From positions 7,782-71,781 of the forward strand of contig DATBIS010000005.1 of NCBI GenBank assembly GCA_036556805.1: a DNA stretch of 64,000 nucleotides. The letters run 5' to 3'. The stretch's first letter is position 1. The number at the start of each line of letters is the position of its first letter. The notes beneath the pieces were generated by a model. That model did no database searches, had not been told where the DNA came from, and worked only from the letters and a program-made list of their open reading frames with translations. This DNA comes from Actinomycetota bacterium (lineage in GTDB: Bacteria; Actinomycetota; UBA4738; HRBIN12). This document shows, one piece after another, positions 13,968 through 54,409 of the stretch. The translations under genes were made by a program, and so were the position numbers.

Positions 13968-13971
<4 letters not shown>
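12865..13971 (+). CDS. Sensor histidine kinase (PAS plus HisKA_3 plus HATPase_c), no cognate response regulator adjacent
   Basis: PAS-like block (VYVDDPDE...WIDKIHPDD...YRMVTRDEHVVWIRD), H-box ERRRIAADIHDDSIQ and a C-terminal ATPase domain. GTG 12865 overlaps the M20 stop (GTGA). Confidence 0.85.
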
Positions 13972-15149
<1,178 letters not shown>

Positions 15150-15150
15150 G

Positions 15151-16176
15151 TCAGGACTCCTTCCGGGTTCGCAGAGTGTGGGCGGACATCCGACGGTCGG
15201 TCAACCCAGATCGAGCGCGTCGGTGAGCCGCAGGCGCCGCGCCGCGTCGGTCCAGCCCGAGCAGCGCCGAGCCGAGCACCGGTGGGGCATCGAGCACGAG
15301 CGTCCGTGATCGAGGCGCGACGGCCAGCATGCCCTCTCGGATCCGCTCGAAGAACTCGTGGTCGTCGTTGCGGAAGATGCCGCCCCCCAGGACGACGTCG
15401 ACGTCGAGCTTCGTCATGTGAAGCCGCCTGATCGCGGCGCCCGCCATCGCGACGACCTCGTCGGCCTGATGGTCGACGATGCTCCGCGCGACGGCGTCCC
15501 CGTCCTTCGCCGCCTCGAACACGACGGGGGCGAGCTCGACGATGCGCTCGCCGTCGATCCGATCGAGGTGCATGGCCTCCACGACCTGGCGCGGACGACG
15601 CAGCCCGAAGAACGCGGGGATGAGGCGGCGCAGGGTCGTGGGGTCGCCCCGCCCGTCCTCGGCGCGAATCGCGTACCAGAGTCCCGCGCCGCCCACGTCG
15701 CCGCCGCCGCCCCAGTCCCCCGAGATCAGGCCGACCGCGGGGAAGCGGAAGACCCGGCCGTTCGGAGCCACCGCCGAGCAGTTCGTGCCGTAACCGCACA
15801 CCACCCCCACGCCCCATGGGCGATCGGTGCCGGCTCGCAGGACCGCGAAGGTGTCGTTGCGGACGACGTCCTCCGACGTGAGGCCCTGCGCGCCCAGCCA
15901 CTTCGCGATGCGTCGGTCGTCGGAGGGGAGGTCGGCGCCGGCGAGGCAGTAGACGCCGACGTCGGCGACGGGGAGCCGGGCAGGGTCGAGGCCGGCGTCG
16001 GCACAGGCCGCGCGCGCCGCCTCCATCACGAAGCCCAGGTGGTCGGGGCTGCCGGTCCCGTTGTGGTCCGAGCCGAGACGCCGAGCGGCTCCCACGACCG
16101 TGCCGTCGGCCCGCAGCAGGGCGGCGTCCACCTTGGAGCCTCCGGCGTCGACCGCGAGGAGTGCGGGTCGCCTCAC
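15151..16176 (-). CDS. BadF/BadG/BcrA/BcrD-type ATPase (N-acetylglucosamine-kinase-like sugar kinase), copy 1
   Basis: N-terminal LAVDAGGSK phosphate-1 motif and GGGD/GGGI ASKHA-fold motifs. GTG start overlaps the CE4 stop (GTGA). Confidence 0.8.
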   Translation of the reverse strand: MRRPALLAVDAGGSKVDAALLRADGTVVGAARRLGSDHNGTGSPDHLGFVMEAARAACADAGLDPARLPVADVGVYCLAGADLPSDDRRIAKWLGAQGLTSEDVVRNDTFAVLRAGTDRPWGVGVVCGYGTNCSAVAPNGRVFRFPAVGLISGDWGGGGDVGGAGLWYAIRAEDGRGDPTTLRRLIPAFFGLRRPRQVVEAMHLDRIDGERIVELAPVVFEAAKDGDAVARSIVDHQADEVVAMAGAAIRRLHMTKLDVDVVLGGGIFRNDDHEFFERIREGMLAVAPRSRTLVLDAPPVLGSALLGLDRRGAAPAAHRRARSGLTDRRMSAHTLRTRKES

Positions 16177-16823
16177 GGGAGTGCCTCCTCGGGAAGCTCG
16201 TCGAGCCGGACGAATCGGAACCCGTCGGCGCGAAGCCCGTCCACGATCGGCGGGACGGCGCCGTGGGTCCCGTCCGGCCAGGTGTGGAGCAGCACGACGG
16301 CTCCGTCGCCGTGCGCACGCACGCCCTCGATCGCGTCACGGGAGATCGCGGCGGCGTCGCGCCACGGCTCCCAGTCCTCGAGCGCCACGTCCCAATGCAC
16401 GTCGCGATAGCCGAGCTCGGCAAGCGGGCCTTGGACTCGCTCGTCGCCGTGACCGTCGCCGAACGGGCACCGGAACCAGGGTTTCGGATCGGTGCCGATG
16501 ATGTCGTAGATCGCCTCTGCCGCCTCACGAACGTCGGTTCGCAGGCCCTCGTCGGTGAACAGCGTCATGCGCGCGTGGTACTTGGAGTGGTTGCCGACGA
16601 GATGTCCGTCGACGGCGATCCGGCGGGCGGTCTCCGGCTGGGATTCCGCCCACCGCCCCTGCACGAAGAAGGTTGCGGCGACCCCCCGTTCGGCGAGGTG
16701 ATCCAGGATGCGCTCGGCGTTCTCGCTCGAGCGCCACGGGCGATCCGGATGCTCCGCGTCGAACGTCAGCGCGACGCGAGGGGCGGTCGGGAATGGGTCA
16801 GGAAAGTTTCCTAACGATTTCAC
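16173..16823 (-). CDS. Polysaccharide deacetylase (NodB homology domain, CE4)
   Basis: ALTFDAEHP (TFDD-like motif 1), GNHSKYH (motif 2) and RCPFG (motif 3). GTG start at 16823. Codons 3-8 coincide with operator box 1. Confidence 0.85.
   Translation of the reverse strand: MKSLGNFPDPFPTAPRVALTFDAEHPDRPWRSSENAERILDHLAERGVAATFFVQGRWAESQPETARRIAVDGHLVGNHSKYHARMTLFTDEGLRTDVREAAEAIYDIIGTDPKPWFRCPFGDGHGDERVQGPLAELGYRDVHWDVALEDWEPWRDAAAISRDAIEGVRAHGDGAVVLLHTWPDGTHGAVPPIVDGLRADGFRFVRLDELPEEALP
16798..16814. promoter_or_regulatory. Operator box 1: TCAGGAAAGTTTCCTAA (palindrome AGGAAA-S-TTTCCT)
   Basis: One of three near-identical 17-bp palindromes in the window. It lies at the 5' end of the CE4 operon and over the -35 region of the divergent GH4 gene. 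Confidence 0.7.
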
Positions 16824-16849
16824 CGCCGGGAGTGTACGATGCGCGGGCC

Positions 16850-18115
16850 ATGGGTGTGAAGGTTGCCGTCGTCGGAGGCGGGAGCACCTACACCCCCGAG
16901 CTCGTCGAGGGGTTCGTGACCCGTGGCGACCGGCTCCCCGTGGACGAGCTCGTGCTGCTCGACGTCGACCCCGACCGCCTCGCGGTGGTAGGGGCTCTCG
17001 CCGAGCGCATGGTGCGGAAGGCCGGCTGGCCGGGAGCGATCCGGCTCACGCAGAGCCGGGACGAGGCGCTCGAGGGCGCTGACTTCGTGATCGTGCAGCT
17101 CCGGGTGGGCGGCCAGGCGGCGCGCCTCACGGACGAGACGATCCCACCGTCGTACGGCTGCATCGGCCAGGAGACGACCGGCCCGGGGGGCTTCGCGAAG
17201 GCGCTGCGGACGGTGCCCGTCGTGCTCGAGCTCGCGCGCGAGACCTCGCGCCTCGGCGCCCCGGGCGCGTGGTTCGTCGACTTCACGAACCCGACCGGGC
17301 TGGTCACACAGGCGCTGCTCGACGAGGGGCACCGGGCGATCGGCCTCTGCAACGTCGCGATCGGGTTCCAGCGCAGGTTCGCGGCGCATTTCGGCGTCGC
17401 GCCGGACCGGGTGCGACTCGACCACGTCGGCCTCAACCACCTCAGCTGGGAGCGGGCCGTGTTCGTGGAGGGCGTCGATCGCCTGGCGGAGCTGCTCGAG
17501 GCGGCCGCCGACCTGGTCGCCGACGAGGCCGATATGCCGGTGGAGCTGGTTCGCGCGCTCGGCGCGATCCCGAGCTCCTACCTGCACTACTACTACCTCA
17601 CCTCCGAGGTGCTCGAGCATCAGCGGTCGCATCCGTCGCGCGCCGAGGAGGTCATGAGGATCGAGGCCGAGCTGCTCGAGCTCTACCGGGACCCCGAGCT
17701 CGACGTGAAGCCGAAGCTGCTCGAGGAGCGCGGCGGCGCCTTCTACTCCGACGCGGCGGCCGCGCTCGTCGCCTCGCTCCACGCCGGCACCGGCGACGTC
17801 CAGGTCGTGAACGTCCGCAACGTCGGCGCGATCCCGAACCTCCCAGCGGACGACGTCGTGGAGGTTTCCGCGACGATCGACCGAGACGGCGCGCACCCGA
17901 TCGCGACCGCACCGCTCGCCCCCGAGATGCTCGGGCTCGTGCAGCACGCGAAGGCGTACGAGCTCCTCGCGATCGAGGCGGCGACGACCGGGAACCGCAC
18001 CACCGCGCTCAAGGCCCTCATGGCGAACCCGCTCGTGGGCGACTACCGCGTCGCGGCACCGCTGCTCGACGCGCTGCTCGACGCGAACCGCGAGCTGCTG
18101 CCGCAGTTCGCCTGA
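16850..18115 (+). CDS. GH4 NAD/Mn-dependent glycosidase (6-phospho-beta-glucosidase-like, CelF/ChbF type)
   Basis: N-terminal KVAVVGGGSTYTPELVEGF Rossmann signature of family 4 glycoside hydrolases. 421 aa. TACGAT hexamer ends 9 nt upstream of the ATG. Confidence 0.9.
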   Translation: MGVKVAVVGGGSTYTPELVEGFVTRGDRLPVDELVLLDVDPDRLAVVGALAERMVRKAGWPGAIRLTQSRDEALEGADFVIVQLRVGGQAARLTDETIPPSYGCIGQETTGPGGFAKALRTVPVVLELARETSRLGAPGAWFVDFTNPTGLVTQALLDEGHRAIGLCNVAIGFQRRFAAHFGVAPDRVRLDHVGLNHLSWERAVFVEGVDRLAELLEAAADLVADEADMPVELVRALGAIPSSYLHYYYLTSEVLEHQRSHPSRAEEVMRIEAELLELYRDPELDVKPKLLEERGGAFYSDAAAALVASLHAGTGDVQVVNVRNVGAIPNLPADDVVEVSATIDRDGAHPIATAPLAPEMLGLVQHAKAYELLAIEAATTGNRTTALKALMANPLVGDYRVAAPLLDALLDANRELLPQFA

Positions 18116-18127
18116 CCCGGCGGACCG

Positions 18128-19363
18128 TCAGCCCTCCGGCAGCTCCGACGCGTGGCGCTGGATCTTCGCGAGGGCCTCGACCGCGTCCTGGACCCCGGCG
18201 TTCCCGTCCCGGAAGACGTTCTCCATGAAGTACACCGACTCGCGAAGGCCCGCGGCCTCGGCGACGGGGAACGACATCGATGCGGGGTCGAGCCGGTCGG
18301 CGAACTCGACGGCCACGGGGAGCCGGGAGAGCGACGGCTGGAACAGCTCGTATCGGCTCATCGGTGGGTACTGGACCTCCGCGGGGATCCCCTCGGCCTC
18401 CATCGCCGCGCAGACGACCTCGTTGGTTCGGCCGGCGAAGGCGTCGGGGTCGATCGCGATGAGGTAGTTGTAGAAGCTCCACCGCGTGATGCGCTCGTCG
18501 GCGGGCATCACGCGAACCCCGGGAACCTCGGCGACGAGCCGTTCGAACGCCTTGCCGGCGACCGCGCGCTCCTCTTGCTGTGCGGGGAACCGTCGCATCG
18601 CCACGACGAGGAGCGCGGCGTGCAGCTCGCTCAGGCGGTAGTTCGCGCCGAACGTGACCTCTTTCTCGTCGGGATCCTTCGGGCGGCCGCAGTCGATGAT
18701 CGAGTGTGCGCGCCTCGCGAGCGCCTCGTCGTTCGTGAGCAGCGAACCGCCCTCGCCGGCGGTGAGGATCTTCGAGGATTGGTGGCTGAAGGACCCGAAG
18801 CTCCCGATGCAGCCCGCGCCGCGGCCGCGCCACTGCTGGCCGTGCGCGTGCGCGCAGTCCTCGACGATCGCGAGGCCGTGGCGCTCGGCGATCTCGGTGA
18901 GGCGATCCATGTCCGCCATCTGGTGGCCGAGGTGCACGGGCAGGATCGCCTTCGTCCGCGGCGTGATCGCGCCTTCGACGAGGTCGGGGTCGATCGTCCA
19001 CGTGCGTGGCTCGACGTCCACGATGACGGGAAGCGCGCCGGCGGCCATCGGCGCGTACGCCGTCGCGCTGAACGTGAGCGCGGGGATGACGACCTCGTCG
19101 CCCCAGCCGATGTCGAGCGCCTTGAGCGCCACCTCCATCGTCACGGTGCCGTTCATCATCAGCACGCCGTGACGGGCACCCTGGTAGGCCGCGAACGCTT
19201 CCTCGAACGCGGCACCGTTGCGGCCGGGCTCCGGGAACCCGCCCCATGCACCGCTCCGCACGACCTCGCCGACCGCCGCGACGTACTCGTCGTCGGGCGA
19301 AGGCCACGCCGGGTACGGGGTGCCGCGAACGGGCGCCCCGCCGTTGATCGCGAGCTCCGCCAT
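18128..19363 (-). CDS. DegT/DnrJ/EryC1/StrS-family PLP aminotransferase
   Basis: Family blocks (MMNGTVTMEVALKAL, VIPALTFSAT, ILPVHLGHQMADM, SFSHQSSKILTAGEGG with the PLP lysine). ATG 19363 is preceded by GGAAGGAG. Confidence 0.85.
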   Translation of the reverse strand: MAELAINGGAPVRGTPYPAWPSPDDEYVAAVGEVVRSGAWGGFPEPGRNGAAFEEAFAAYQGARHGVLMMNGTVTMEVALKALDIGWGDEVVIPALTFSATAYAPMAAGALPVIVDVEPRTWTIDPDLVEGAITPRTKAILPVHLGHQMADMDRLTEIAERHGLAIVEDCAHAHGQQWRGRGAGCIGSFGSFSHQSSKILTAGEGGSLLTNDEALARRAHSIIDCGRPKDPDEKEVTFGANYRLSELHAALLVVAMRRFPAQQEERAVAGKAFERLVAEVPGVRVMPADERITRWSFYNYLIAIDPDAFAGRTNEVVCAAMEAEGIPAEVQYPPMSRYELFQPSLSRLPVAVEFADRLDPASMSFPVAEAAGLRESVYFMENVFRDGNAGVQDAVEALAKIQRHASELPEG

Positions 19364-19457
19364 CGTCACACGCTCCTTCCGTCGGGCCGCGGTCGCGGCC
19401 TTGGTAGTGTCCACCACGTGGGGGCCTCGTGACGAGGATCGAGCCGGAGGAGCCGCG

Positions 19458-20732
19458 CTGATCCTCGACCTCACGCCGGCACACGACGTCAGGATCGACG
19501 CGGGGACGAAGGGTTTTCCGGCGCTCACCGGATCGGTTCGCGCGGTGGACGTCGCCGCGGCGGGCTGGTCGCTCCCTCGCGACCTGCGCGCGCCGGTGAT
19601 GACCCTGCGCGCGACGGCGCTCGACCACAACCTCGCGCTCATGGCGTCGTTCTGTCGCAACCACGACGTGGACCTCGTTCCGCACGGTAAGACGACGATG
19701 GCGCCGCAGCTCTGGGACCGACAGCTCGAGGCGGGGGCCTGGGGGATCACGGCCGCCACCGTCGCGCAGGCGGCAGTCATGCGCTCGGTGAGGGTGCCGC
19801 GGATCCTGCTCGCGAACGAGCTCGTGGACGGCCCCTCGATCGACTGGGTCGCAGCACAGCTCGGAGACCCGGACTTCGACTTCGTGTGCTACGTGGACTC
19901 GCTGCGCGGCGTCGCGATCCTCGAGGAGCGCTTGGGCGCGGCCGGCGCGCCGAGGCCGCTGGGCGTGCTCGTCGAGATCGGCCACGAGGGCGGCCGCACG
20001 GGTTGCCGGACGGTGGACGCCGCGCTCGAGGTCGCGGGGGCGGTCGCGGCGAGCAAGCGTCTCGAGCTCGCCGGCGCCGCAGGCTACGAGGGGACGATCG
20101 GCGAGGGTCGCTCCCTCGACGCGATGACGGCCGTGAGCGCGTTCGTCGATCGGCTCGGCGAACTCGCGAGGGGCCTGCTCGAACGCGGCGCGGTCCGCGA
20201 CGGAGCGATCGTGAGCGCGGGTGGCAGCGTGTTCTTCGACGTCGTCGCCGACCGGCTGCGTGAGGCGCTTCCCGAGGGATCCGGCGCGCGCATCGCGTTG
20301 CGATCGGGCTGCTACCTCACGCACGACCACGGGACGTACGAGCGCAACTCGCCGTTCTCCGGACGCGCGGATCCCGCGCTGCGATTCCATCCCGCGATCG
20401 AGCTCTGGGGGAGGGTGCTCTCCCGACCCGAGCCGTCGCTCGCGCTGCTCGGCTTCGGGCGGCGCGACGCCCCCTTCGACACCGGGATGCCTGTGCCCCT
20501 GTCGATCCACTCGCCGTCGGGCGATCCGACACGGGCCGCGCGCGGGATCGAGGTGGAGCGCCTGAACGACCAGCACGCGTTCTGCCGAGTCGACCCGAAG
20601 ACGCCGCTCGAGGTCGGAGAGCTCGTGGCGTGCGGGATCTCGCACCCGTGCACGGCGTTCGACAAATGGCGCGTGCTGCCGGTCGTCGACGACCACCTGC
20701 GCGTGGTCGACGCCGTCGCGACGTTCTTCTAG
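19458..20732 (+). CDS. D-serine-dehydratase-like PLP enzyme (alanine racemase N-terminal fold, DSD1 type 'amino acid deaminase')
   Basis: PHGKTTMAP (PLP-lysine motif) and C-terminal GISHPCTAFDKW block. GGAGGAG (19446-19452) plus a 5-nt spacer precedes in-frame CTG 19458. The alternative canonical GTG at 19407 has no SD. Confidence 0.75.
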   Translation: MILDLTPAHDVRIDAGTKGFPALTGSVRAVDVAAAGWSLPRDLRAPVMTLRATALDHNLALMASFCRNHDVDLVPHGKTTMAPQLWDRQLEAGAWGITAATVAQAAVMRSVRVPRILLANELVDGPSIDWVAAQLGDPDFDFVCYVDSLRGVAILEERLGAAGAPRPLGVLVEIGHEGGRTGCRTVDAALEVAGAVAASKRLELAGAAGYEGTIGEGRSLDAMTAVSAFVDRLGELARGLLERGAVRDGAIVSAGGSVFFDVVADRLREALPEGSGARIALRSGCYLTHDHGTYERNSPFSGRADPALRFHPAIELWGRVLSRPEPSLALLGFGRRDAPFDTGMPVPLSIHSPSGDPTRAARGIEVERLNDQHAFCRVDPKTPLEVGELVACGISHPCTAFDKWRVLPVVDDHLRVVDAVATFF

Positions 20733-21616
20733 CGTTTCGGGAAGCCCTCGGTGTCGCCCACGGTCGTGGCGACCGCCGCACCGCACCGCGCGCCCTCGGC
20801 GAGCGCTGTCGCCGGGTCCGCGCCCGAGAGACGGGCGGCGAGATAGCCGGCGTTGAACGCGTCGCCGGCGCCGACGGGGTCGACGTCCGCGCGAGGCTCG
20901 CCCTCGAGCTCGTGCCAGCCGCCGCGCTCGTCGAGCGCGGCGGCGCCCCGAGGCCCGCGCTTCACCACCACCTCACGGGGACCGCTCGCGCGGCAACGCC
21001 GCGCGAGCTCCTCCGCCGAACCCGGCCCCACGAGCGCGGCGAGCTCCCGCTCGCCCGCCAGCACCAGCGTGGCGCGTTCGACCAACGGAAGCACGAGCTC
21101 GGGCGCGCGATCCGAACCCCAGAGCCCCGCCCGGAGGTTCGGATCGACCGCGCGGACGCCGCCGGCGCGTTCGAGCAGCGAGATCGCCGCACGCCCCGGA
21201 CCGTCGCCGATCAGCGCCGTGATGCCGGTCACGAGCACGGCGCGGGCGTCCTCGACCGGCACACCGTCCAGATCCTTGGGCGACAGCGCGCTCGCGGCCG
21301 ACGCCAAGCGGTAGTAGACGACCGCGCCGGTCGTGTCGCGGAGCATGAGGCCGGTCGGGCGGCCCGGGTCCCGCGTCACCCAGCGGACGTCGACGCCCTC
21401 GCGCTCGAGCGCGGCGGCCACGCGTTCGCCCGGGACGTCGGCGCCCAGCCTGCTCACCCAGGCCGTACGCAATCCCAAGCGGGCGAAGCCGACGCACGCA
21501 TTGCTCTCCGCGCCGCCGTGCGTCACGTGAAGCGAGCCGGCGCCCGCGAGCGTTCCCTCGGCGACGAGCGAGAGCATCGTCTCGCCGACCGCGACGAGGT
21601 CGAAGCGCGCGCTCAC
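20729..21616 (-). CDS. kdgK: PfkB-family sugar kinase, 2-dehydro-3-deoxygluconokinase-like
   Basis: GGAESN and C-terminal DPVGAGDAFNAGY PfkB signatures. GTG start overlaps the eda stop (GTGA). Confidence 0.8.
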   Translation of the reverse strand: MSARFDLVAVGETMLSLVAEGTLAGAGSLHVTHGGAESNACVGFARLGLRTAWVSRLGADVPGERVAAALEREGVDVRWVTRDPGRPTGLMLRDTTGAVVYYRLASAASALSPKDLDGVPVEDARAVLVTGITALIGDGPGRAAISLLERAGGVRAVDPNLRAGLWGSDRAPELVLPLVERATLVLAGERELAALVGPGSAEELARRCRASGPREVVVKRGPRGAAALDERGGWHELEGEPRADVDPVGAGDAFNAGYLAARLSGADPATALAEGARCGAAVATTVGDTEGFPKR

Positions 21617-22227
21617 GGCGAGGCGGCGACGCGCGCGACGGCGGCGGCGCGCGCCGCGACGCGCTTCAGCTCGCCGTCTCCGTGCGGCGGCGTCCGGCCC
21701 ACCAGCTCGCCGCCCAGCCCCACGCAGGTGGCCCCGGCCTCGAGGTAGCCCTGCACCTCCTTGATCGCGATGCCTCCCGTCGGCACGAACGGCGTCGTGG
21801 GGAACGGTCCGCGCAACGCGCGCACGTATGCGGGGCCTCCCGTCGAGGCGGGGAAGAGCTTCACGGCCTTCACGCCCAGCGCGAGCGCCCGGAGGATCTC
21901 GGTGGCGGTGAACGCGCCGGCGATCGGCTCCAGCCCGCGGTCCAGCGCCTCGGCGATCACCTCGTCGACGGTTCCGGGGGTCACGACGAACCGGGCTCCG
22001 GCGTCGGCGCAGGCGCGCACCTGCTCGGCGGTGACCACGGTGCCCACGCCGACCGTTCGCCCCTTCGCGGCCGACCTCTCGACCGCATCGAGGGCGCCCG
22101 GGGTGTCGATCGTGACCTCGGAAAGACCGATCCCGCCCGCGTCGAGCGCATCGAGGGTCGCTTCGACGTCCCCCTCGGAACGGAACCGAACGATCGCGAG
22201 CACGCGGGACGATTCGATCACCGACAT
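21613..22227 (-). CDS. eda: KDPG/KHG aldolase
   Basis: Typical Eda length (204 aa) and blocks (VLAIVR, GIGLSEVT, GAGTV-like GVGTVV, KLFPA with the Schiff-base lysine, PTGGI). Confidence 0.85.
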   Translation of the reverse strand: MSVIESSRVLAIVRFRSEGDVEATLDALDAGGIGLSEVTIDTPGALDAVERSAAKGRTVGVGTVVTAEQVRACADAGARFVVTPGTVDEVIAEALDRGLEPIAGAFTATEILRALALGVKAVKLFPASTGGPAYVRALRGPFPTTPFVPTGGIAIKEVQGYLEAGATCVGLGGELVGRTPPHGDGELKRVAARAAAVARVAASP

Positions 22228-22281: not shown

Positions 22282-22298
22282 TTAGGAAACTTTCCTAT
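22282..22298. promoter_or_regulatory. Operator box 2: TTAGGAAACTTTCCTAT
   Basis: Second copy of the palindrome, in the eda / ROK divergent intergenic region. It starts 14 nt after a TAGCAT hexamer (22263-22268) and ends 8 nt before the SD GGGAGGG (22307-22313). Confidence 0.7.
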
Positions 22299-22383
22299 CA
22301 CGGATCGGGAGGGTGCGACGCCGACGGAACAGACGTTCGCCGCGGGGACGCCCAGCCTCCTTCGCGCGATCAACGAGCGGACC

Positions 22384-23523
22384 GTGCTCGAGTTCATCCG
22401 GCAGGTCGGTCCCGTCTCCCGCGCGCAGATCGCGAGGGACTCCGGACTCTCGAAGCCGACGGTCTCGCAGGCGCTCTCGGCGCTCGCGCGCGCGAAGCTC
22501 GTGCGCGAGGCCGGGCGATCGTCGGGCGGGAAGGGGCCCACCGCCGTGCTCTACGAGCTGAACCCGAGGGCCGGATGGGTGGTGGGCATCGACGTGGGCC
22601 GCGACCGCGTGCGCGCGGCGATCGCCGACCTCACCGGGGACTTCATCGCTCGCCGCGACGAGCGGGCGCGGGTGCGGAGCGCGGACACCCTCCTCGAGCA
22701 GATCGGAGAGATCTCCCACGGCCTCGCGGCCGAGGCGGGCATCCGCTGGCGGCAGGTCACCTCGGCGGCCGTCGCGAGCCCCGGAGTCCTGGAGCCCGCC
22801 CGAGGCAAGGTCTCGCTCGCTCACAACCTGCCGGGATGGGGGCGCCTCGGCCTCGTGGAGGCGCTGCGGAAGGAGCTCGGCACGGCACTCACGTTCGAGA
22901 ACGACGTGAACCTCGCGACGGTGGGCGAGCAGTGGCGCGGCCTCGGCAAAGACGTGCAGAACTTCGTGTTCCTGCACGTCGGGACCGGGGTGGGGATGGG
23001 GTTGGTGGTAAACGGCCGCCTGTTCCGGGGCGCGCACGGTGCGGCCGGCGAGGTCGGGTACCTGCCGCTCGCGACCGCCGACCCGCACGATCCCGAGAAC
23101 CTGCGTCACGGCGCCCTCGAGGGGGCGGTGGGAGCGGCCGGCGTGGTGGAGCTCGCTCGCTCGCTCGGCATGGAGGCCCCACTCACGCCGAGGAAGATCT
23201 TCCACGCCGCGCGAAAGGGCGATCCCATCCCCCGGAAGGTGGTCGACCTGGTCGCGGACCGGATCGCGCTCGGGATCGCCGCCGTGGTCCCCGTGGTCGA
23301 TCCCGAGCTCGTGATCCTCGGGGGAGGGATCGGACAGAACGGTGACCTCCTGCTCGAGCGGATCGAGCGCGAGCTGCAGACGCTCTCGCCCTTCCACCCC
23401 AGGATCGAGATTTCGGCGCTGGGTGAAGACGCGGAGCTGAACGGGGCCGTCGCCACCGCACTTCAGGAGGCCCAGGACCAGTTGTTCGCCCGCGCCGACG
23501 CGCGGGGAGGCATCGCCGTATGA
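22384..23523 (+). CDS. ROK-family transcriptional repressor (NagC/CsnR-like); N-terminus probably extends to about 22318
   Basis: wHTH (VSRAQIARDSGLSKPTVSQAL) plus a ROK sugar-kinase-like domain. 22384 is the first canonical start, but the conserved helix LLRAINERT is encoded in-frame upstream (see findings). Confidence 0.85.
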   Translation: MLEFIRQVGPVSRAQIARDSGLSKPTVSQALSALARAKLVREAGRSSGGKGPTAVLYELNPRAGWVVGIDVGRDRVRAAIADLTGDFIARRDERARVRSADTLLEQIGEISHGLAAEAGIRWRQVTSAAVASPGVLEPARGKVSLAHNLPGWGRLGLVEALRKELGTALTFENDVNLATVGEQWRGLGKDVQNFVFLHVGTGVGMGLVVNGRLFRGAHGAAGEVGYLPLATADPHDPENLRHGALEGAVGAAGVVELARSLGMEAPLTPRKIFHAARKGDPIPRKVVDLVADRIALGIAAVVPVVDPELVILGGGIGQNGDLLLERIERELQTLSPFHPRIEISALGEDAELNGAVATALQEAQDQLFARADARGGIAV

Positions 23524-23588: not shown

Positions 23589-24941
23589 ATGAAGCGATTG
23601 TTGGTGTCGACGCTCGTGTTCGCGCTCGCCGTGACCGCGTGCACCGCGGGTGGCAACACCTCGACCCCCGCCACCATCAACCCGAGCGAGTCGCACGAAC
23701 CGGTGACCCTCGAGATCTGGGGCGCCTGGTCGGGCCGCGAGCTCAAGCAGTTCAACCAGATCTTCGACGGGTTCACCGCCCAGTACCCGTGGATCACGGT
23801 GAACAGCACGGGCAGTGTGGGAGACCAGAAGATCATCGCTGGCATCAACAGCGGCACGCCGCCGGACGTGGTGCTCTCGTTCACGCCCGACCGGGTCGGC
23901 GCGTTCTGCGCGACCGGCGGTTGGCAGGACCTGATGCCGTATATGGACCAAACGGGCTTCGATCTCAGCCAGATCCCGGAGGGGGCGCTCGCGTACACGA
24001 GCTACGGCGGCAGCCAGTGCGCGCTGCCGTTCCTCACGGACACGTACGGCCTGTACTACAACATCGACATGTTGGAGAAGGCGGGCATCTCGGATCCTCC
24101 GAAGACGCTCTCCGAGCTGCAGGCCGATGCGAAGAAGCTCACCGTCATCAACTCGAGCGGCGAGATCGAGGTCGCGGGGTTCGTGCCCTGGTTCGGGTAC
24201 TACGAGTTCAGCCCGTTGAACATGTCCATCATGTTCGATGCCCCCTGGTACAACGCCGACGGGACCCAGTCGGCGGTCGGGACGGACCCCGCCTGGCAAA
24301 CGATGTTCGAGTGGCAGAAGCAGTTCATCGCGGACGTGTACGGCGATGGTGACTTCGCGACGGGGGCCGACCGGCTCCAGCGCTTCGTCGCCGGTGCGGG
24401 CGAGGAGTTCTCGACGGCGCACGACATGTACACCGGCCGGATCGCGATGAACCTCGACGGCGAATGGCGCACGGCGTTCATCGCGGACGAGAAGCCCGAC
24501 ATGAACTACGGGACGGCGCCGCTGCCGACGCCCGACGACCTCGCGAGCAACTACGGCATGGGCCCGATGTACGGCACGATCATCGGCATGCCCAAGGGCT
24601 CCCCGCACCCCGCCGAGGCGTGGCTGCTGCTCCAGTACATGGCGACGGACACGGATACGCTCGTGTACATGGCGAACAACGTGCGGAACGTGCCGACGAC
24701 GCTCGCGTCGCTCGACTCGCCAGACCTGGACGTGACGCCGCAGTTTCAGACGTTCCTGGACATCTTCACGAACCCGCTGTCGCGGGACAAGGAGCCGACG
24801 GCGATCGGGTCCGCCGACCAGGAGACGGTCTCGAGCTTCGCCGAGAAGTGGCAGACGAACGCGGACTCGGACCTCGCCGGCGGACTGCAGCAAGCCGCCA
24901 CGCAGATCGACGACCAGCTCGCCCAGCAGCAGGGACCATAG
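23589..24941 (+). CDS. ABC transporter solute-binding lipoprotein (family 1, oligosaccharide type)
   Basis: ATG 23589 follows GGGAGAGGGAGG. Signal peptide with lipobox LAVTAC. SBP_bac_1-like blocks (LEIWGAW, AGINSGTPPDV). Confidence 0.85.
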   Translation: MKRLLVSTLVFALAVTACTAGGNTSTPATINPSESHEPVTLEIWGAWSGRELKQFNQIFDGFTAQYPWITVNSTGSVGDQKIIAGINSGTPPDVVLSFTPDRVGAFCATGGWQDLMPYMDQTGFDLSQIPEGALAYTSYGGSQCALPFLTDTYGLYYNIDMLEKAGISDPPKTLSELQADAKKLTVINSSGEIEVAGFVPWFGYYEFSPLNMSIMFDAPWYNADGTQSAVGTDPAWQTMFEWQKQFIADVYGDGDFATGADRLQRFVAGAGEEFSTAHDMYTGRIAMNLDGEWRTAFIADEKPDMNYGTAPLPTPDDLASNYGMGPMYGTIIGMPKGSPHPAEAWLLLQYMATDTDTLVYMANNVRNVPTTLASLDSPDLDVTPQFQTFLDIFTNPLSRDKEPTAIGSADQETVSSFAEKWQTNADSDLAGGLQQAATQIDDQLAQQQGP

Positions 24942-25046
24942 GGAGGAGCCACGGCCGCATCGACCACGCAGATCACGCGGGCGCCCGTCGAGGTCGCCGC
25001 CATCCGGCGGCGGCCTCGCCGGCGCGACCCGAAGCACGCGCTCACC

Positions 25047-25952
25047 GTGCTGGCGTTCATGGCACCGTGGATCCTCGGGTTCCTGGGCCTGATCCTCTAC
25101 CCGATGCTCTCGAGCCTGTACTTCTCGTTCACGAGGTACTCGCTGCTCGACCAGCCCCAGTGGATCGGTCTGGACAACTACGTCTTCATGTTCACGAAGG
25201 ACCCGTACTTCTGGATCACGCTGCGGAACACGCTATGGATCATCGTGGTGGGCGTGCCGTCGAGGGTCGCGTTCGGCATCATCACCGCCTGGCTCCTCAC
25301 CCTCCCAAGGAAGGGCACGCGGACCTATCGCACGATGTACTTCATGCCCTCGATCGCGCCGCCAGCCGCGGCCGCGCTCGCGTTCGTCCTGGTCTTCCAG
25401 CCTGCGTTCGGGCCGGTGAACCAGATCCTTCGCGGACTCGGGATGCGTGAACCGCCGCTCTGGTTCTACGGACCGGGATCGTCGAAGTGGGGCCTGGTGC
25501 TGCTCGGTCTGTGGGGCATCGGGGACGCGATGATCATCTTCCTCGCCGGGCTCCTGAACGTGCCCCGCCAGCTCTATGAGGCGGCGGACATCGAGGGCGC
25601 GAACGGCCGGCAGAAGTTCCGCCACGTGACGCTCCCGATGATCTCGCCGGTGATCTTCTTCTCCACCGTGATCGGGATCATCTACGGCTTCCAGCTGTTC
25701 ACCCAGGCCTACGTCGCGAGCGTGGCGACGAGCGGCTCGTCGGTGACCGACGTGGCTTCGAACATCGGAAGCCCGCAGAACTCGATGCTGTTCTTCTCGG
25801 TGTACCTGTACAAGACCGGCTTCCAGGACTTCCGCATGGGGTACGCGTCGGCGCTCGCGTGGGTGCTCTTCGTGATCACGATGGTGTGCACCCTCACCAT
25901 CATCAAGGGCTCGCGGCGCTGGGTCTTCTATCAGGGGGGTGGCTTTCGATAG
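25047..25952 (+). CDS. ABC sugar permease (MalF/CUT1 type); start may be upstream at about 24951
   Basis: Six-TM BPD_transp_1 pattern with an EAA-like loop (YEAADIEGANGRQKF). GTG 25047 is the first canonical start, but the basic N-terminal segment is encoded in-frame upstream after an SD. Confidence 0.8.
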   Translation: MLAFMAPWILGFLGLILYPMLSSLYFSFTRYSLLDQPQWIGLDNYVFMFTKDPYFWITLRNTLWIIVVGVPSRVAFGIITAWLLTLPRKGTRTYRTMYFMPSIAPPAAAALAFVLVFQPAFGPVNQILRGLGMREPPLWFYGPGSSKWGLVLLGLWGIGDAMIIFLAGLLNVPRQLYEAADIEGANGRQKFRHVTLPMISPVIFFSTVIGIIYGFQLFTQAYVASVATSGSSVTDVASNIGSPQNSMLFFSVYLYKTGFQDFRMGYASALAWVLFVITMVCTLTIIKGSRRWVFYQGGGFR

Positions 25953-25984
25953 CGACGGCGACCGCGGCACCACCTGCAGCACGC

Positions 25985-26848
25985 GTGGCCGACATCACGC
26001 CACGTCCCGTCCCCGAGGTCGTGCGTCGCCGGCGCTTCCTCCTCGCGGTCGGGCGCCATGCCGTGCTCATCAGCGTGGCGGCGGCCTTCCTGGCGCCGTT
26101 CCTCTTCATCGTGTTCACGTCGCTCATGACCAGCCAGCAGGCCGTGACGCCGTCGTTTTGGCCACGACCGTTCCAGTGGTCGAACTACGTGGACGTGTTC
26201 CGCCGGATCCCATTCGTCACGTACTTCTGGAACACCACGCAGATCGCCGTGGGCGCGACGATCGGGGTCCTCGTGTCGTGCATCCCCGTGGCGTACGCCT
26301 TGTCGAGGATGCGCTGGCGCGGCCGCCAGTTCGCGTTCGTGCTGATCCTTTCGACGCTGATGCTGCCGTTCCAGGTGACGGTCGTGCCCCTGTACGTCAT
26401 CTGGGTGCGGCTCGGCCAGATCAACCACCTCACGCCGCTGATCCTCCCGGCGTTCCTCGGCGACGCCTTCTCGATCTTCCTGCTCCGGCAGTTCTTCCTC
26501 ACGATCCCGGAGGAGCTCTCCGACGCGGCTCGCGTCGACGGGGCGAGCGAATGGCAGATCATGACGCGCGTGATCGTGCCGCTCGCGAAGCCCGCGATCG
26601 CGGCCGTCGCGTTGTTCCAGTTCCTCTATTCGTGGAACGACCTCTTCGGGCCGCTGCTCTTCCTCGGCGGCAACCAGAAGCTGTGGACGCTCACGATCGG
26701 GCTGTCGGAGTTCCAGTCCCGGCACGGCGTCGAGTGGAACCTCACGATGGCGGCGTCGGTGCTCTTCATGCTGCCGATCATCGTGCTGTTCTTCCTGGCG
26801 CAGCGAGCGTTCATCGAGGGCGTCACCCTCACCGGCGTGAAGGGCTGA
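25985..26848 (+). CDS. ABC sugar permease (MalG/CUT1 type)
   Basis: EAA loop (SDAARVDGASEWQIMTRV) and six TM helices. GTG 25985 is the first start after the upstream stop. The listed ORF start 25859 overlaps the previous permease. Confidence 0.8.
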   Translation: MADITPRPVPEVVRRRRFLLAVGRHAVLISVAAAFLAPFLFIVFTSLMTSQQAVTPSFWPRPFQWSNYVDVFRRIPFVTYFWNTTQIAVGATIGVLVSCIPVAYALSRMRWRGRQFAFVLILSTLMLPFQVTVVPLYVIWVRLGQINHLTPLILPAFLGDAFSIFLLRQFFLTIPEELSDAARVDGASEWQIMTRVIVPLAKPAIAAVALFQFLYSWNDLFGPLLFLGGNQKLWTLTIGLSEFQSRHGVEWNLTMAASVLFMLPIIVLFFLAQRAFIEGVTLTGVKG

Positions 26849-26857
26849 CGCCCTCCC

Positions 26858-27814
26858 ATGTCGATCCGGGTCGCCCTGTTCGGGTGCGGGTGGATTCAGG
26901 ACTTCCACGCGCGCGGCGTGCGGGCGCACCCGGATGGCGAGCTCGTCGCGGTCGCGAACCACCGCGAGGAGACCGCGCACGCGTTCGCCGAACGACACGA
27001 GATCGAACGCGTGACGACGGACTGGCGGACGCTCGCCGCCGATCCCGCCGTGGACGCCGCGATCGTGGCGACGCCGAACGCCCTGCACGCACCCCAGGCC
27101 GTGGAGCTCCTGCGCGCCGGCAAGCACGTGCTGGTCGAGAAGCCGATGGCGACCTCGGTCGCCGAGTGCGACGCGATGATCCAGGCGGCCGCGGAGGGAT
27201 CGGCGTCGCTCATGGTCGCGCACTGCTGGCGCTTCCACGACGACGTCAGGGCTTTGGGGCGCCGGATCGAGGCCGGCGAGCTCGGCGAGATCGTGAAGAC
27301 CCGAGGGTACGGCGTGCACGTGGACTGGGGGCCCTCGGGATGGTTCGTCGATCGCGAGCTCGCGGGCGGCGGCGCACTCGTCGACATGGGGGTCCACGCG
27401 ATCGACACCGCGCGGTTCCTCCTGGGCGACCCGGTGCCGGAGCGGGTCTGCGCGGCGATCGGCACGCGCTACGCAGCCGGGCGGTACGAGGTCGACGACG
27501 ACGGGGTCGTGCTGATCACGTGGTCGAACGGGACGACCTCCCTCGTGGAGTGCGGGTGGTGGCAGCCGCACCGGGGCGGACCCGAGGCGGATACCGAGGT
27601 CTACGGCACGAGGGGCTACGATCGCGTCTGGCCCGCGGAGGCCCCCGCCGACGACGAGCTTGGGCTCCAGCCCATGTATTCGGCACAGGTGGGGGAGTTC
27701 CTCGACGCCGTCGGCGAGGGCCGGCGGCCGCGGCCTTCCGGCGAGGACGGGAGGATCGTGATGCAGGTGGTCGAGCGAGCGTATGCCTCCGCGCTCGAGG
27801 CGCACGCGACGTGA
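26858..27814 (+). CDS. Gfo/Idh/MocA-family NAD(P)-dependent oxidoreductase (or NAD-dependent glycosidase-like)
   Basis: N-terminal Rossmann VALFGCGWI and the EKP motif (VLVEKPMA). Confidence 0.85.
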   Translation: MSIRVALFGCGWIQDFHARGVRAHPDGELVAVANHREETAHAFAERHEIERVTTDWRTLAADPAVDAAIVATPNALHAPQAVELLRAGKHVLVEKPMATSVAECDAMIQAAAEGSASLMVAHCWRFHDDVRALGRRIEAGELGEIVKTRGYGVHVDWGPSGWFVDRELAGGGALVDMGVHAIDTARFLLGDPVPERVCAAIGTRYAAGRYEVDDDGVVLITWSNGTTSLVECGWWQPHRGGPEADTEVYGTRGYDRVWPAEAPADDELGLQPMYSAQVGEFLDAVGEGRRPRPSGEDGRIVMQVVERAYASALEAHAT

Positions 27815-28797
27815 GCGTCTTCCTCGGCGTCGACGGCGGTGGGACGAAGACGCACGCCGTGGTGGCGGACGGGGCTGGCACTCCCCTCGGGGTCGGCGTG
27901 AGCGGCGCGTCCAACTGGGAGGACGTGGGCCTGGACGGCGCCGTCGCCACGGTGGGCGCGGCGGTCGAGGAGGCCTTCGGGCAGGCGAACCTCGGCCCTT
28001 CGGATGCGACGGCGGCCGTCTTCGGCCTCGCCGGACTGGACTGGGAGAGCGATCGCCGGCGCCTCGCGATCGTCCCGGAGTCGCTCGGGCTTGCGTGCGA
28101 GTGGCTGACGGTGAACGACTCGTTCGTCGCGCTCCGCGCCGGCGCCAACCATCCGTGGGGGATCGTCGTGATCGCCGGCACCGGGGCCGTCGCCGCCGGC
28201 CGGGACCCCGATGGGCAGGAGTTTCGAACCCTCGGGCTCGGCCCGGTGTACGGCGACTACGGGAGCGCCTCGGAGATCGGAGAGGCGGCGATGCGCGCCG
28301 TGGCGGAGTGGTTCATCGGGCTCGGCGGCGCGACGGCGCTCACCGACGCCTTGTGCCTGCATGCTGGCGTCGACACCGCGCAAGAGCTCCTCGAACGCTA
28401 CAGCCGGAGCCAGGAGCCACTCGACCCGATCGCCCGCGTCGTGATGAAGGTCGCCGACGAGGGCGACCCGACTGCGAGGACCATCGCCGAGCGCGCCGGC
28501 GCCGGCCTGGGTGCTCGCGCGGCGCTCGTGGCGCGCAAGCTCTCGATGCAGCAGTTGCCCGTCGAGGTGGTGCTCGCAGGAGGAGTGTTCCGGAGCGCGA
28601 ACCGCGCGTTGATGGCCGCGTTCGAGATGGAGCTTCGCCGAACGGTGCCGCGCGCGGCGGTCTCGCGGCTGGAGGTCCCGCCGGTCGTCGGGGCCGTGCT
28701 GCGCGCGATGGAGCTCGTCGGCGTTGAGCCGCCCGGAGCCGTGCACCTGCACCTCTCGCTCGAGGTGATCAAGCACCTCGGCTACGAGTTCGCCTGA
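27811..28797 (+). CDS. BadF/BadG/BcrA/BcrD-type ATPase (N-acetylglucosamine-kinase-like sugar kinase), copy 2
   Basis: FLGVDGGGTKT phosphate-1 motif and AGTGAV, GGGVF motifs. GTG 27811 overlaps the upstream stop (GTGA). Only the last 328 codons of the 952-aa track ORF are credible. Confidence 0.8.
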   Translation: MSVFLGVDGGGTKTHAVVADGAGTPLGVGVSGASNWEDVGLDGAVATVGAAVEEAFGQANLGPSDATAAVFGLAGLDWESDRRRLAIVPESLGLACEWLTVNDSFVALRAGANHPWGIVVIAGTGAVAAGRDPDGQEFRTLGLGPVYGDYGSASEIGEAAMRAVAEWFIGLGGATALTDALCLHAGVDTAQELLERYSRSQEPLDPIARVVMKVADEGDPTARTIAERAGAGLGARAALVARKLSMQQLPVEVVLAGGVFRSANRALMAAFEMELRRTVPRAAVSRLEVPPVVGAVLRAMELVGVEPPGAVHLHLSLEVIKHLGYEFA

Positions 28798-28801
28798 ACG
28801 T

Positions 28802-29635
28802 TCAGACGCGCGACGCGGCCTCGGCCTGGCGGCCCAGGTAGCCCCAGACGAGCAGCACCTGGTAGAGCTCGCGGAGGTCGTCCGTCTCGTAGCGCAGGGT
28901 CCGCGCCGCGGGCCGTTCCGTTCGCGGCACGAGCATCCCCATGTCGACGATCGCCGTGCTCGCGTCCACCTCGAACGTGTAGGGCGGCGGCGGGCGGAAC
29001 GGCCGCAGCGTCCCCGCGCCGATCACGGCCTGTTCGGCGGCGCCCTTGATCACGGTGCGTGCCCACTCCGGGGAGAGCGATCGCGCGGACGTTCGCCCGA
29101 ACGCCTCCTTCACGGCGACGGTGCGCACGCCCGGAAGCGCGGCCTCGGCCTGCTGGCAGCACGCGCGGTCGCCCACCACCAGAGCGACCGGAACCCCGAA
29201 GCTTCCGGCGAGCGCCGCGTTCAGCAACGTCTCGTTCCACGAATCGCCGTTGACGCGCACGTCGGTGAAGAACCCCGCGTAGGTGTGGTCGAGGATCGCC
29301 TGGCTCGTGCCGGCTCCCGCGTGGTACCCGAGGAAGAGCGCGCAGTCCGTGCCGGTCTCGAGCCCGGTCATCATCGAGAACGGCACCTTCGGCGCGCCCT
29401 GCACGAGCTCGGCGCGCTGATCGAGCTTCTGCGGCAACAGGTTCCCCATGTCGCCGTGCGAGTCGCTCACCACCACCCGGGAGGCCCCCGCCTCGAAGGA
29501 ACCCGCGATCGCGGCGTTGGCCTCCTCGGTCATGATCTCGCGGGCCCACGCGTAGTCGTCGGTCCCGCGGGTCATCTGACGTGCCGACGTGAGGCCGGCG
29601 ATGCCTTCCATGTCGATCGAGATGAACACGTCCAT
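28802..29635 (-). CDS. M55 peptidase, DppA-like D-aminopeptidase
   Basis: N-terminal ISIDMEGIAG and SDSHG motifs characteristic of the DppA/M55 family. 277 aa. Confidence 0.8.
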   Translation of the reverse strand: MDVFISIDMEGIAGLTSARQMTRGTDDYAWAREIMTEEANAAIAGSFEAGASRVVVSDSHGDMGNLLPQKLDQRAELVQGAPKVPFSMMTGLETGTDCALFLGYHAGAGTSQAILDHTYAGFFTDVRVNGDSWNETLLNAALAGSFGVPVALVVGDRACCQQAEAALPGVRTVAVKEAFGRTSARSLSPEWARTVIKGAAEQAVIGAGTLRPFRPPPPYTFEVDASTAIVDMGMLVPRTERPAARTLRYETDDLRELYQVLLVWGYLGRQAEAASRV

Positions 29636-54392: not shown

Positions 54393-54409
54393 ATAGGAAA
54401 CTTTCCTAA
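54393..54409. promoter_or_regulatory. Operator box 3: ATAGGAAACTTTCCTAA
   Basis: Third copy of the palindrome. On the minus strand it lies between a TACGAT hexamer (54433-54428) and the TTG start at 54391. Its AGGAAAG half could double as the SD. Confidence 0.7.

Follow-up and report, generated by a model that had tools for sequence, protein, structure and literature searches.

OngC, the deaminase that the ong (oxidised N-acetylglucosamine) cluster of Pseudoalteromonas prydzensis encodes, is a fold-type III enzyme that depends on pyridoxal 5′-phosphate (PLP) and is a remote relative of D-serine deaminases as well as of D-threonine aldolases; it acts on non-phosphorylated 2-amino-2-deoxy-D-gluconate (glucosaminate, GlcN1A) and converts it to 2-keto-3-deoxygluconate (KDG) and ammonia ahead of the kinase KdgK (Jiang et al. 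2022, PMC9537276). This precedent begins with oligomers oxidised by lytic polysaccharide monooxygenases (LPMOs), and complete pathways from the N-acetylated acid (GlcNAc1A) via GlcN1A to KDG were reported from no groups other than the Gamma- and Betaproteobacteria (Jiang et al. 2022, PMC9537276). In Streptomyces, the six-gene chitosan-oligosaccharide locus csnREFGHK is controlled by CsnR (Dubeau et al. 2011, reviewed in PMC6097792); past CsnR, the importer, the family 4 glycoside hydrolase (GH4) and the kinase, actinomycete catabolism of glucosamine (GlcN) and chitosan is called largely unknown in the literature. Here we analyse a 64-kb stretch of DNA (the window; contig DATBIS010000005.1 of assembly GCA_036556805.1, G+C ~70%) from an uncultured actinobacterium, represented by a soil metagenome-assembled genome, in which a predicted OngC-type deaminase gene at 19458-20732 lies against kdgK and eda inside a CsnR-type chitosan locus. 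The explanation that best fits the locus as a whole, to which we assign a probability of about 0.68, is a branch leading from the deaminase via KdgK to Eda, in parallel to the glucosamine 6-phosphate (GlcN-6-P) route.

The window enzyme resembles OngC in its fold type, its length (~415-425 residues) and its PHGKTT and SHPC..FDKW motifs. In the ong clusters the product KDG passes to an adjacent KdgK, joined in Vibrio and Klebsiella by KdgA/Eda, and the window likewise pairs kdgK with eda. In contrast, the OngB deacetylase, OngD/RidA, the RpiR/MurR regulator, the sodium/solute symporter (SSS) and the GH20 enzyme OngA of the ong cluster are absent from the window, which has in their place a ROK/CsnR operator system, a CUT1 ATP-binding cassette (ABC) importer, GH4 and GH9 enzymes, a family 4 carbohydrate esterase (CE4), a Gfo/Idh/MocA oxidoreductase (GFO) and a DegT aminotransferase; its host is an actinobacterium rather than a Gamma- or Betaproteobacterium, and its feedstock is likely deacetylated, that is, chitosan-derived. 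With csnREFGHK the locus shares a ROK repressor gene in first position, a substrate-binding protein (SBP), two permeases, GH4, a sugar kinase, an MsiK-type ATPase and an identical operator core, but the Streptomyces locus has no deaminase, KdgK, Eda, GFO, DegT or CE4, all of which are present in the window. The dga route of Salmonella follows a similar logic: an amino-aldonate loses its amino group to give a 2-keto-3-deoxy acid, which 2-keto-3-deoxy-6-phosphogluconate (KDPG) aldolase then cleaves. However, DgaE is an unrelated fold-type I enzyme acting on the 6-phosphate after uptake by a phosphotransferase system (PTS), and no KDG kinase is needed; the window, whose PLP enzyme is of fold-type III, shows neither a fold-type I DgaE nor a mannose-family PTS nor sigma-54 control, and no PTS gene was found among its genes. 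The D-glucosaminate dehydratase of Pseudomonas is classified as EC 4.3.1.9.

An OngC-type enzyme beside kdgK and eda

Genes in the window were called by third-position GC frame analysis together with Pfam, and the calls reproduce the layout of the original prediction, which had described a DegT aminotransferase, a PLP enzyme, kdgK, eda and a Gfo/Idh/MocA gene. The features that carry the argument are the following:

18128-19363, minus strand: DegT/DnrJ/EryC1 aminotransferase, divergent from the deaminase gene (Pfam E 1e-87)
19385-19400, unstranded: conserved palindrome GGCCGCGGTCGCGGCC in the DegT/deaminase leader, of presumed function, the leader being near-identical in L081, L085 and L086
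19402-19410: extended -10-like element TGGTAGTGT in the same leader, followed by GGGGG at 19420-19424
19429-19461, plus strand: 10-codon mini-ORF (open reading frame) VTRIEPEEPR, whose TGA stop overlaps CTG 19458
19458-20732, plus strand: OngC-type fold-type III PLP enzyme with PF14031, predicted GlcN1A ammonia-lyase; start uncertain
20729-21616, minus strand: PfkB kinase (KdgK; Pfam PfkB E 4e-44; 78% identity to L081)
21613-22227, minus strand: KDPG/2-keto-4-hydroxyglutarate aldolase (Eda), opening the eda-kdgK operon and overlapping kdgK by 4 bp (Pfam Aldolase E 6e-39)
22283-22297, unstranded: CsnR-type operator box 2, perfect TAGGAAACTTTCCTA, in the divergent eda/ROK region
22369-23523, plus strand: ROK-family repressor, CsnR-like (Pfam ROK and helix-turn-helix; 92% identity to L081, dN/dS 0.07)

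Numbers preceded by L denote the genome loci used for comparison. The deaminase and kdgK genes meet tail to tail, their stop codons overlapping as CTAG at 20729-20732, exactly as had been described. The best NCBIfam matches of the PfkB protein are kinases of KDG and 2-keto-3-deoxygalactonate (KDGal), below cut-off, and Eda reaches 155.2 bits against the TIGR01182 eda cut-off of 156.05.

The PLP enzyme shows a two-domain architecture, in which an alanine-racemase-like barrel with the PLP lysine is followed by a C-terminal PF14031 D-ser_dehydrat domain (E 4e-16); the N-terminal domain aligns to that of Protein Data Bank entry 3GWQ including PHGKTTMAPQL, and PF01168 is recorded for most homologs. 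3GWQ is also the closest solved structure (E 8e-83 over the full length, ~41-45% identity, same motifs), and its name 'D-serine deaminase' is a structural-genomics annotation rather than the outcome of an assay. D-threonine aldolases (4V15, 7DIB) match the window protein at E 1e-26 to 1e-18, and chicken D-serine dehydratase (3ANU, E 0.065) and D-threo-3-hydroxyaspartate dehydratase (3WQC, E 0.014) match its N-terminal domain only. With all of these it has in common the barrel and PF14031, the PLP lysine and, towards the C terminus, a His that binds metal. The enzyme had been labelled as of the D-serine dehydratase (DSD1) type; this holds for the superfamily and for the shared H-x-C motif, but not for the clade, since 3GWQ is matched at 8e-83 and the DSD1-type dehydratases only at E 0.01-0.07. 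We therefore assign the product of 19458-20732, as judged from its sequence, to the fold-type III PLP enzymes of the OngC/3GWQ clade. A role as D-threonine aldolase or racemase was considered and rejected on account of the 'SHVD' (H-x-D) of 4V15, a feature of the D-threonine aldolases, against 'SHPC' (H-x-C) in the window, and of the genomic context.

Both motifs that the original prediction had pointed out, PHGKTT with its lysine and SHPC in the C-terminal part, are present and invariant in the homologs. Among 78 columns conserved at ≥93% in KDG-linked family members, the window protein is identical in 75, including K95, H413 and C415; it departs in three (A>V, G>R, L>M). The comparison with OngC was made through a Vibrio ortholog (L084:9950-11221), identified by context, which stands in for the characterised PPRY_b0288 (415 residues) and shares 35% identity with the window protein over 402 residues (E 2e-75). 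This ortholog was found by tblastn in PLSDB on a 1.85-Mb Vibrio replicon, in a canonical ong cluster with GH20, Eda, KdgK, SSS, RidA and OngB genes on one strand and the PF14031 protein and RpiR on the other; the amidohydrolase of this cluster, which has the D-aminoacylase fold, matches PpOngB (9KB1) at E 2.8e-170. In the deposited annotation the exact window protein is 'hypothetical protein VH989_00455', and the family appears in its sources as 'D-serine deaminase-like' or 'amino acid deaminase'.

Conserved gene order and family-wide linkage

The order DegT, deaminase, PfkB(-Eda) is also found in L081 (68% deaminase identity), L085 (81%) and L086 (67%), which argues that the adjacency is not due to chance. 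L081, from a second metagenome-assembled genome, retains nearly all of the cluster with its gene order unchanged; its two additional genes are an SIS gene resembling NagB-II/GlmS and another GH4 gene (GH4b), which is translationally coupled to the deaminase gene. In L083 (58%) the order is GH4-DegT-deaminase-ROK-SBP, and a RidA gene fills the eda-kdgK slot beneath the same operator.

Linkage across the family was counted in 80 genome loci, taking as neighbours the genes within 7 kb of a deaminase homolog. KdgK or Eda lies near the homolog in 25 of these loci, in line with the co-occurrence of the gene trio that had been put forward as a check, and some 2-keto-3-deoxy-acid enzyme (KdgK, Eda, DapA-type, RraA-type or HpcH/HpaI-type) in 35. 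This linkage, which is spread over at least five gene orders and is seen on either side of the tree, provides strong comparative evidence that the family makes a 2-keto-3-deoxy sugar acid. The aldolase partner varies with lineage, being DapA-type in Dormibacterota, RraA-type in several lineages and HpcH/HpaI-type in Rhodobacteraceae. Further neighbours are RidA (33/80), D-aminoacylase-like or other amidohydrolases (30/80), IclR regulators (22/80) and, in several loci, GntP permeases. On the basis of the conserved synteny, the family-wide linkage to KdgK/Eda and three further types of 2-keto-3-deoxy-acid aldolase and the homology to the OngC ortholog, it is very probable that the window enzyme acts on a 2-amino-2-deoxy-aldonate, glucosaminate, and by its deamination supplies KDG to the adjoining KdgK and Eda; the predicted sequence from glucosaminate via KDG to KDPG is thereby well supported.

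Several other loci show related arrangements. In Nocardia, Mycolicibacterium, Actinocrinis and Peterkaempfera (L033, L044, L046, L047, L049, L054, L061, L072, L077), ong-like actinobacterial clusters have the order RidA-IclR-KdgK divergent from the deaminase, a D-aminoacylase-like protein, Eda and GntP. The D-aminoacylase-like neighbours of the actinobacterial homologs were considered as OngB orthologs and set aside, as they are not specifically nearer to PpOngB than to classical D-aminoacylases. Klebsiella sp. BIGb0407 (L062:2981-11143) carries D-aminoacylase and RpiR genes on the minus strand, GH4, a chb-like PTS EIIC and RidA, and the deaminase gene on the plus strand, which looks like a PTS/GH4 version of an oxidised-chitobiose pathway, unlike the SSS-type ong cluster of Klebsiella. 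In Rhodobacteraceae and Devosia (L026:4783-11281, L052, L067, L034), an RraA-like gene, an operon of GFO, short-chain dehydrogenase/reductase (SDR), GFO-like, SDR, HpcH/HpaI aldolase and deaminase genes, and RidA stand together; this operon may encode a non-phosphorylative amino-sugar oxidation pathway. Five enterobacterial loci (L041, L058, L063, L065, L066) begin with RidA, followed by an amino-acid-type SBP, permeases, an ATPase and the deaminase; this order appears to match that of pseudomonad loci with an amino-acid-type ABC transporter, which are reportedly covered by a fitness-based annotation as glucosaminate ammonia-lyase attributed to Price and colleagues and GapMind. Finally, a family of 382-residue proteins without Pfam match recurs beside the deaminase and RidA genes of Actinomadura and its relatives (L068:13147-14295 and eight other loci).

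The CsnR-type chitosan locus

The remaining genes of the cluster provide an ABC importer, MsiK, GH4, a CE4 deacetylase and two NagK-like kinases, to which a distant GH9 gene is added:

13968-15149, minus strand: MsiK/MalK-type ABC ATPase (Pfam ABC_tran and OB_MalK; 89% identity to the L081 ortholog)
15151-16176, minus strand: BadF/BadG-type sugar kinase 1, NagK-like (Pfam BcrAD_BadFG; weak NCBIfam NagK_SO3507 match; 79% to L081)
16173-16784, minus strand: CE4 polysaccharide/chito-oligosaccharide deacetylase (Pfam Polysacc_deac_1 E 8e-26; 77% to L081)
16799-16813, unstranded: CsnR-type operator box 1, CAGGAAAGTTTCCTA, one to two mismatches against the palindrome, between the divergent CE4 and GH4 genes
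16856-18115, plus strand: GH4 glycoside hydrolase, CsnH-like (Pfam Glyco_hydro_4 and 4C; 87% to L081 GH4a; GH4 also in csnREFGHK)
23598-26848, plus strand: CUT1 ABC importer, comprising SBP 23598-24941 and permeases 25047-25952 and 26021-26848 (Pfam SBP_bac_1, BPD_transp_1)
26858-27814, plus strand: Gfo/Idh/MocA oxidoreductase, candidate GlcN C1 dehydrogenase (Pfam; 85% to L081)
27811-28797, plus strand: BadF/BadG-type sugar kinase 2 in the CsnK-like position (Pfam BcrAD_BadFG E 6e-28; weak NagK_SO3507 match)
28802-29635, minus strand: M55 DppA-like D-aminopeptidase, ending the cluster in the window as it does in L081 (86% identity)
52415-54229, minus strand: GH9 glycoside hydrolase (Pfam Glyco_hydro_9 and CelD_N), with CsnR box 3 (54394-54408) 165 bp upstream

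The window contains three CsnR-type palindromes (at 16799, 22283 and 54394), compared with 0.03 expected by chance; boxes 2 and 3 are perfect and box 1 deviates as listed. As the core of the boxes is identical to the experimentally validated csnN106 operator of CsnR, we regard the locus as a CsnR-type chitosan-oligosaccharide cluster. L081 and L083 carry boxes at the positions of window boxes 1 and 2. Box 2, which had been named as the operator at the start of the eda-kdgK operon, bears this out: it sits 56 bp upstream of the eda ATG, and eda-kdgK shares this control region with the ROK repressor gene. It also lies 15-29 nt downstream of the plus-strand promoter-like site TTGACC-18-TAGCAT of the ROK gene, the only such site returned by a simple sigma-70 scan, which gave none for eda or the deaminase. 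The GH9 gene is probably a further, distant member of the CsnR regulon, and its product might, by analogy with other GH9 enzymes, be an exo-beta-glucosaminidase.

Among the solved relatives of the GFO are aldose-aldose oxidoreductase, 1,5-anhydrofructose reductase and glucose-fructose oxidoreductase (GFOR), and a role of the protein as a GlcN C1 oxidase is plausible on sequence grounds. DegT adjoins the deaminase in five contigs (the window, L081, L083, L085 and L086) and is closest to non-nucleotide keto-sugar/inosose aminotransferases, its best solved relative being L-glutamine:2-deoxy-scyllo-inosose aminotransferase (5W70, E 1e-68). By analogy, the pair of GFO and DegT might recall an oxidation-transamination of the NtdC/NtdA type.

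Some features of the surrounding genes may be added. The CE4 gene is easily missed by simple ORF scoring and heads a CE4-kinase-MsiK operon divergent from GH4. The SBP and permease genes (23598-26848) are 56-71% identical to those of L081 with dN/dS of 0.31-0.45, compared with 83-92% identity for the flanking ROK, GFO and kinase genes, and their G+C is lower (0.656). Low conservation and lower G+C together suggest a changed transporter specificity or recombinational replacement; in L073 and L079, homologous SBP and permease genes adjoin the deaminase gene. Since glucosaminate counts formally among the D-alpha-amino acids, a link to the M55 D-aminopeptidase is conceivable.

Proposed pathway

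We propose that PLP- and metal-assisted alpha,beta-elimination on GlcN1A would yield NH3 and KDG, and that the products of the convergent eda-kdgK operon would phosphorylate KDG and cleave KDPG to pyruvate and glyceraldehyde-3-phosphate. GlcN1A would most likely be the oxidised chain end of imported C1-oxidised oligomers, freed by GH4; alternatively, it could arise by cytoplasmic C1 oxidation of GlcN by the co-transcribed GFO. The first of these sources is slightly favoured, because the coupling to GH4 in L081 and the combination of PTS-EIIC and GH4 in L062 indicate an aldonate freed from a glycoside. Enzyme activities, operator occupancy and expression at the locus are throughout predictions from sequence.

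The deaminase route would operate alongside the kinase/GlcN-6-P route and not in its place. L081 and L083 have the NagB-II/GlmS-like SIS gene between CE4 and GH4, together with NagK-like kinases, and it is this retention in the relatives that argues for a parallel branch rather than a replacement. Comparison of 16784-16856 with L081:2092-3159 reveals that the SIS gene is cleanly gone from the window, as is the second GH4 gene of L081. The original prediction had reported no nagA/nagB-type genes in the cluster, and indeed no SIS, NagB or NagA gene is found there; its inference of a new glucosamine exit that dispenses with NagB is nevertheless weakened as regards replacement by the NagB-II-like SIS genes of L081 and L083.

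Start codon and leader of the deaminase gene

The end and strand of the deaminase gene are as originally given, but the start is not, as 19458 is a CTG. This CTG is the position homologous to the deaminase starts of the relatives and is not a canonical start codon, and the GTG at 19407 chosen by the Prokaryotic Genome Annotation Pipeline falls inside the conserved -10-like element. The leader (19364-19461) is near-identical in the window, L081, L085 and L086, though the coding regions are only 67-81% identical. GTG 19429 of this leader starts the deaminase in L085 and GH4b in L081, where the GH4b stop overlaps the deaminase start; L086 has a four-codon version of the mini-ORF with an ATGA overlap. 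The mini-ORF of the window looks like a remnant of the ancestral start and of the deleted second GH4 gene, and translation of the deaminase may depend on reinitiation at the near-cognate codon.

The ORF itself is intact, with 424 codons and normal third-position GC. Its dN/dS against L081 is 0.30, close to that of Eda (0.28) and within the range of its neighbours (0.07-0.45), which indicates purifying selection. A pseudogene is thus unsupported by dN/dS and by residue conservation, while the problem of the start codon stays.

Alternative explanations

Several observations weigh against the proposed branch. OngC also deaminates D-Ser and D-Thr (PMC9537276). The window protein is just ~34-35% identical to the OngC ortholog, and that comparison rests on the context-identified Vibrio protein and not on PPRY_b0288 itself. 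Within the family, the complete-genome clade nearest to the window protein (L001-L004, L018, L082; 56-63% identity) does not adjoin KdgK/Eda; in L082 (equivalent to the L001 region), L002-L004 and L018 the neighbours are a YkuD L,D-transpeptidase-like protein, an ornithine/diaminopimelate-decarboxylase-like PLP enzyme, a metallo-beta-lactamase-fold protein and an amidohydrolase, and this clade may use a different substrate. The window has neither an OngB-type deacetylase nor RidA: tblastn with representatives of RidA, D-aminoacylase-like proteins, other amidohydrolases, IclR, GntP and DapA gave no homolog in the 64 kb. Between 19300 and 19560, upstream of the deaminase and DegT genes, there is no CsnR box with up to four mismatches. 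Relative to L081, no other enzyme of the cluster is as weakly conserved as the deaminase (68% against 76-92%), and expression of the deaminase in this genome is uncertain because the ancestral GTG start has been frameshifted into the out-of-frame mini-ORF, which leaves CTG at the homologous start.

Against this background we weighed four other explanations. The pathway as first conceived, in which the GFO oxidises free GlcN at C1, the lactone opens and the deaminase yields KDG as the main GlcN exit in place of NagB, departs from the parallel branch in just two respects, where GlcN1A comes from and whether NagB is replaced. The GFO gene is co-transcribed with the importer and 85% conserved in L081, C1-oxidising enzymes (aldose-aldose oxidoreductase, GFOR) are among its best solved relatives, the alphaproteobacterial GFO-SDR-GFO-SDR-HpcH aldolase-deaminase operons of L026, L052, L067 and L034 lack a deacetylase, and the window cluster itself lacks both the SIS/NagB-II gene and OngB. 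However, the cluster contains no lactonase, the GFO resembles 1,5-anhydrofructose reductase and glycoside 3-dehydrogenases just as closely, the SIS and kinase genes kept in L081 and L083 mark the GlcN-6-P route as ancestral to the cluster, and the deaminase is coupled to GH4 in L081 and follows PTS-EIIC and GH4 in L062; we therefore consider this pathway possible but doubtful. A different substrate of the same kind, be it D-galactosaminate, D-mannosaminate or a 6-phospho-amino-aldonate that would give KDPG directly as with Salmonella DgaE, might be suggested by the two sugar kinases, by the match of KdgK to bifunctional KDG/KDGal kinases and by the resemblance of Eda to 2-keto-3-deoxy-6-phosphogalactonate aldolases as well. 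Yet a substrate that already bears the phosphate would leave KdgK without a task, OngC uses the non-phosphorylated acid, and the CsnR/chitosan context with its GlcN-based operator regulon favours the gluco configuration, which makes such a substrate the least probable of the four.

The enzyme could also be a general D-Ser/D-Thr dehydratase, perhaps tied to the M55 D-aminopeptidase kept at the cluster end in the window and L081, in which case its position beside kdgK-eda would be metabolically meaningless. The family names, the in vitro activity of OngC on D-Ser and D-Thr and the nearest genome clade without KdgK agree with this. On the other side, DegT-deaminase-kdgK-eda are kept in order in four contigs at 67-81% identity, the 2-keto-3-deoxy-sugar-acid enzymes in 35 of the 80 loci belong to four unrelated folds and are needless for D-Ser/D-Thr catabolism, and the cluster has no amino-acid transporter; a dehydratase of this type is hence improbable, nearly as much so as the alternative sugar acids. 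Slightly better placed, though still unlikely, is a decaying remnant, in which GH4b and the canonical start were lost, translation is poor or absent, and the module is non-functional here but functional in the relatives. Of the two GTG codons of the leader, one opens the out-of-frame mini-ORF and the other lies in the -10-like element, CTG is left as the homologous start, and the deaminase has the lowest identity of the cluster enzymes. The intact frame with its normal third-position GC, the 75 retained columns and a dN/dS like that of Eda speak against decay, and the TGA/CTG overlap would permit termination-reinitiation, as the analogous ATGA overlap of L086 illustrates. The parallel OngC-type branch thus remains our preferred explanation.

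Implications

The chemistry proposed here is known. A DSD1-type glucosaminate ammonia-lyase had been expected to be an undescribed solution; this expectation fails, because OngC already converts glucosaminate to KDG and ammonia before KdgK (Jiang et al. 2022, PMC9537276). The novelty lies in the setting, as an OngC-type module lacking deacetylase and RidA stands inside a CsnR chitosan regulon of Actinomycetota. A more far-reaching possibility, which we regard as unlikely, is an undescribed CsnR-controlled oxidative chitosan branch in some soil Actinomycetota, in which the GFO would oxidise GlcN or the reducing end of oligomers inside the cell, an OngC-type enzyme would deaminate the product with no deacetylase involved, and a semi-phosphorylative Entner-Doudoroff pathway would bypass toxic GlcN-6-P, with DegT providing a second, transaminative removal of the amino group.

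The loci in Actinomycetota, Chloroflexota and Dormibacterota suggest that ong-like clusters are widespread outside the Proteobacteria. No new chemistry is revealed. On the more far-reaching reading, OngC-type amino-aldonate catabolism would be widespread in these three phyla and not confined to Proteobacteria. The locus family would be a source of glucosaminate lyases for biocatalysis, and it would offer testable candidates for the use by soil bacteria of oxidised (LPMO- or oxidase-derived) or deacetylated chitin fragments.

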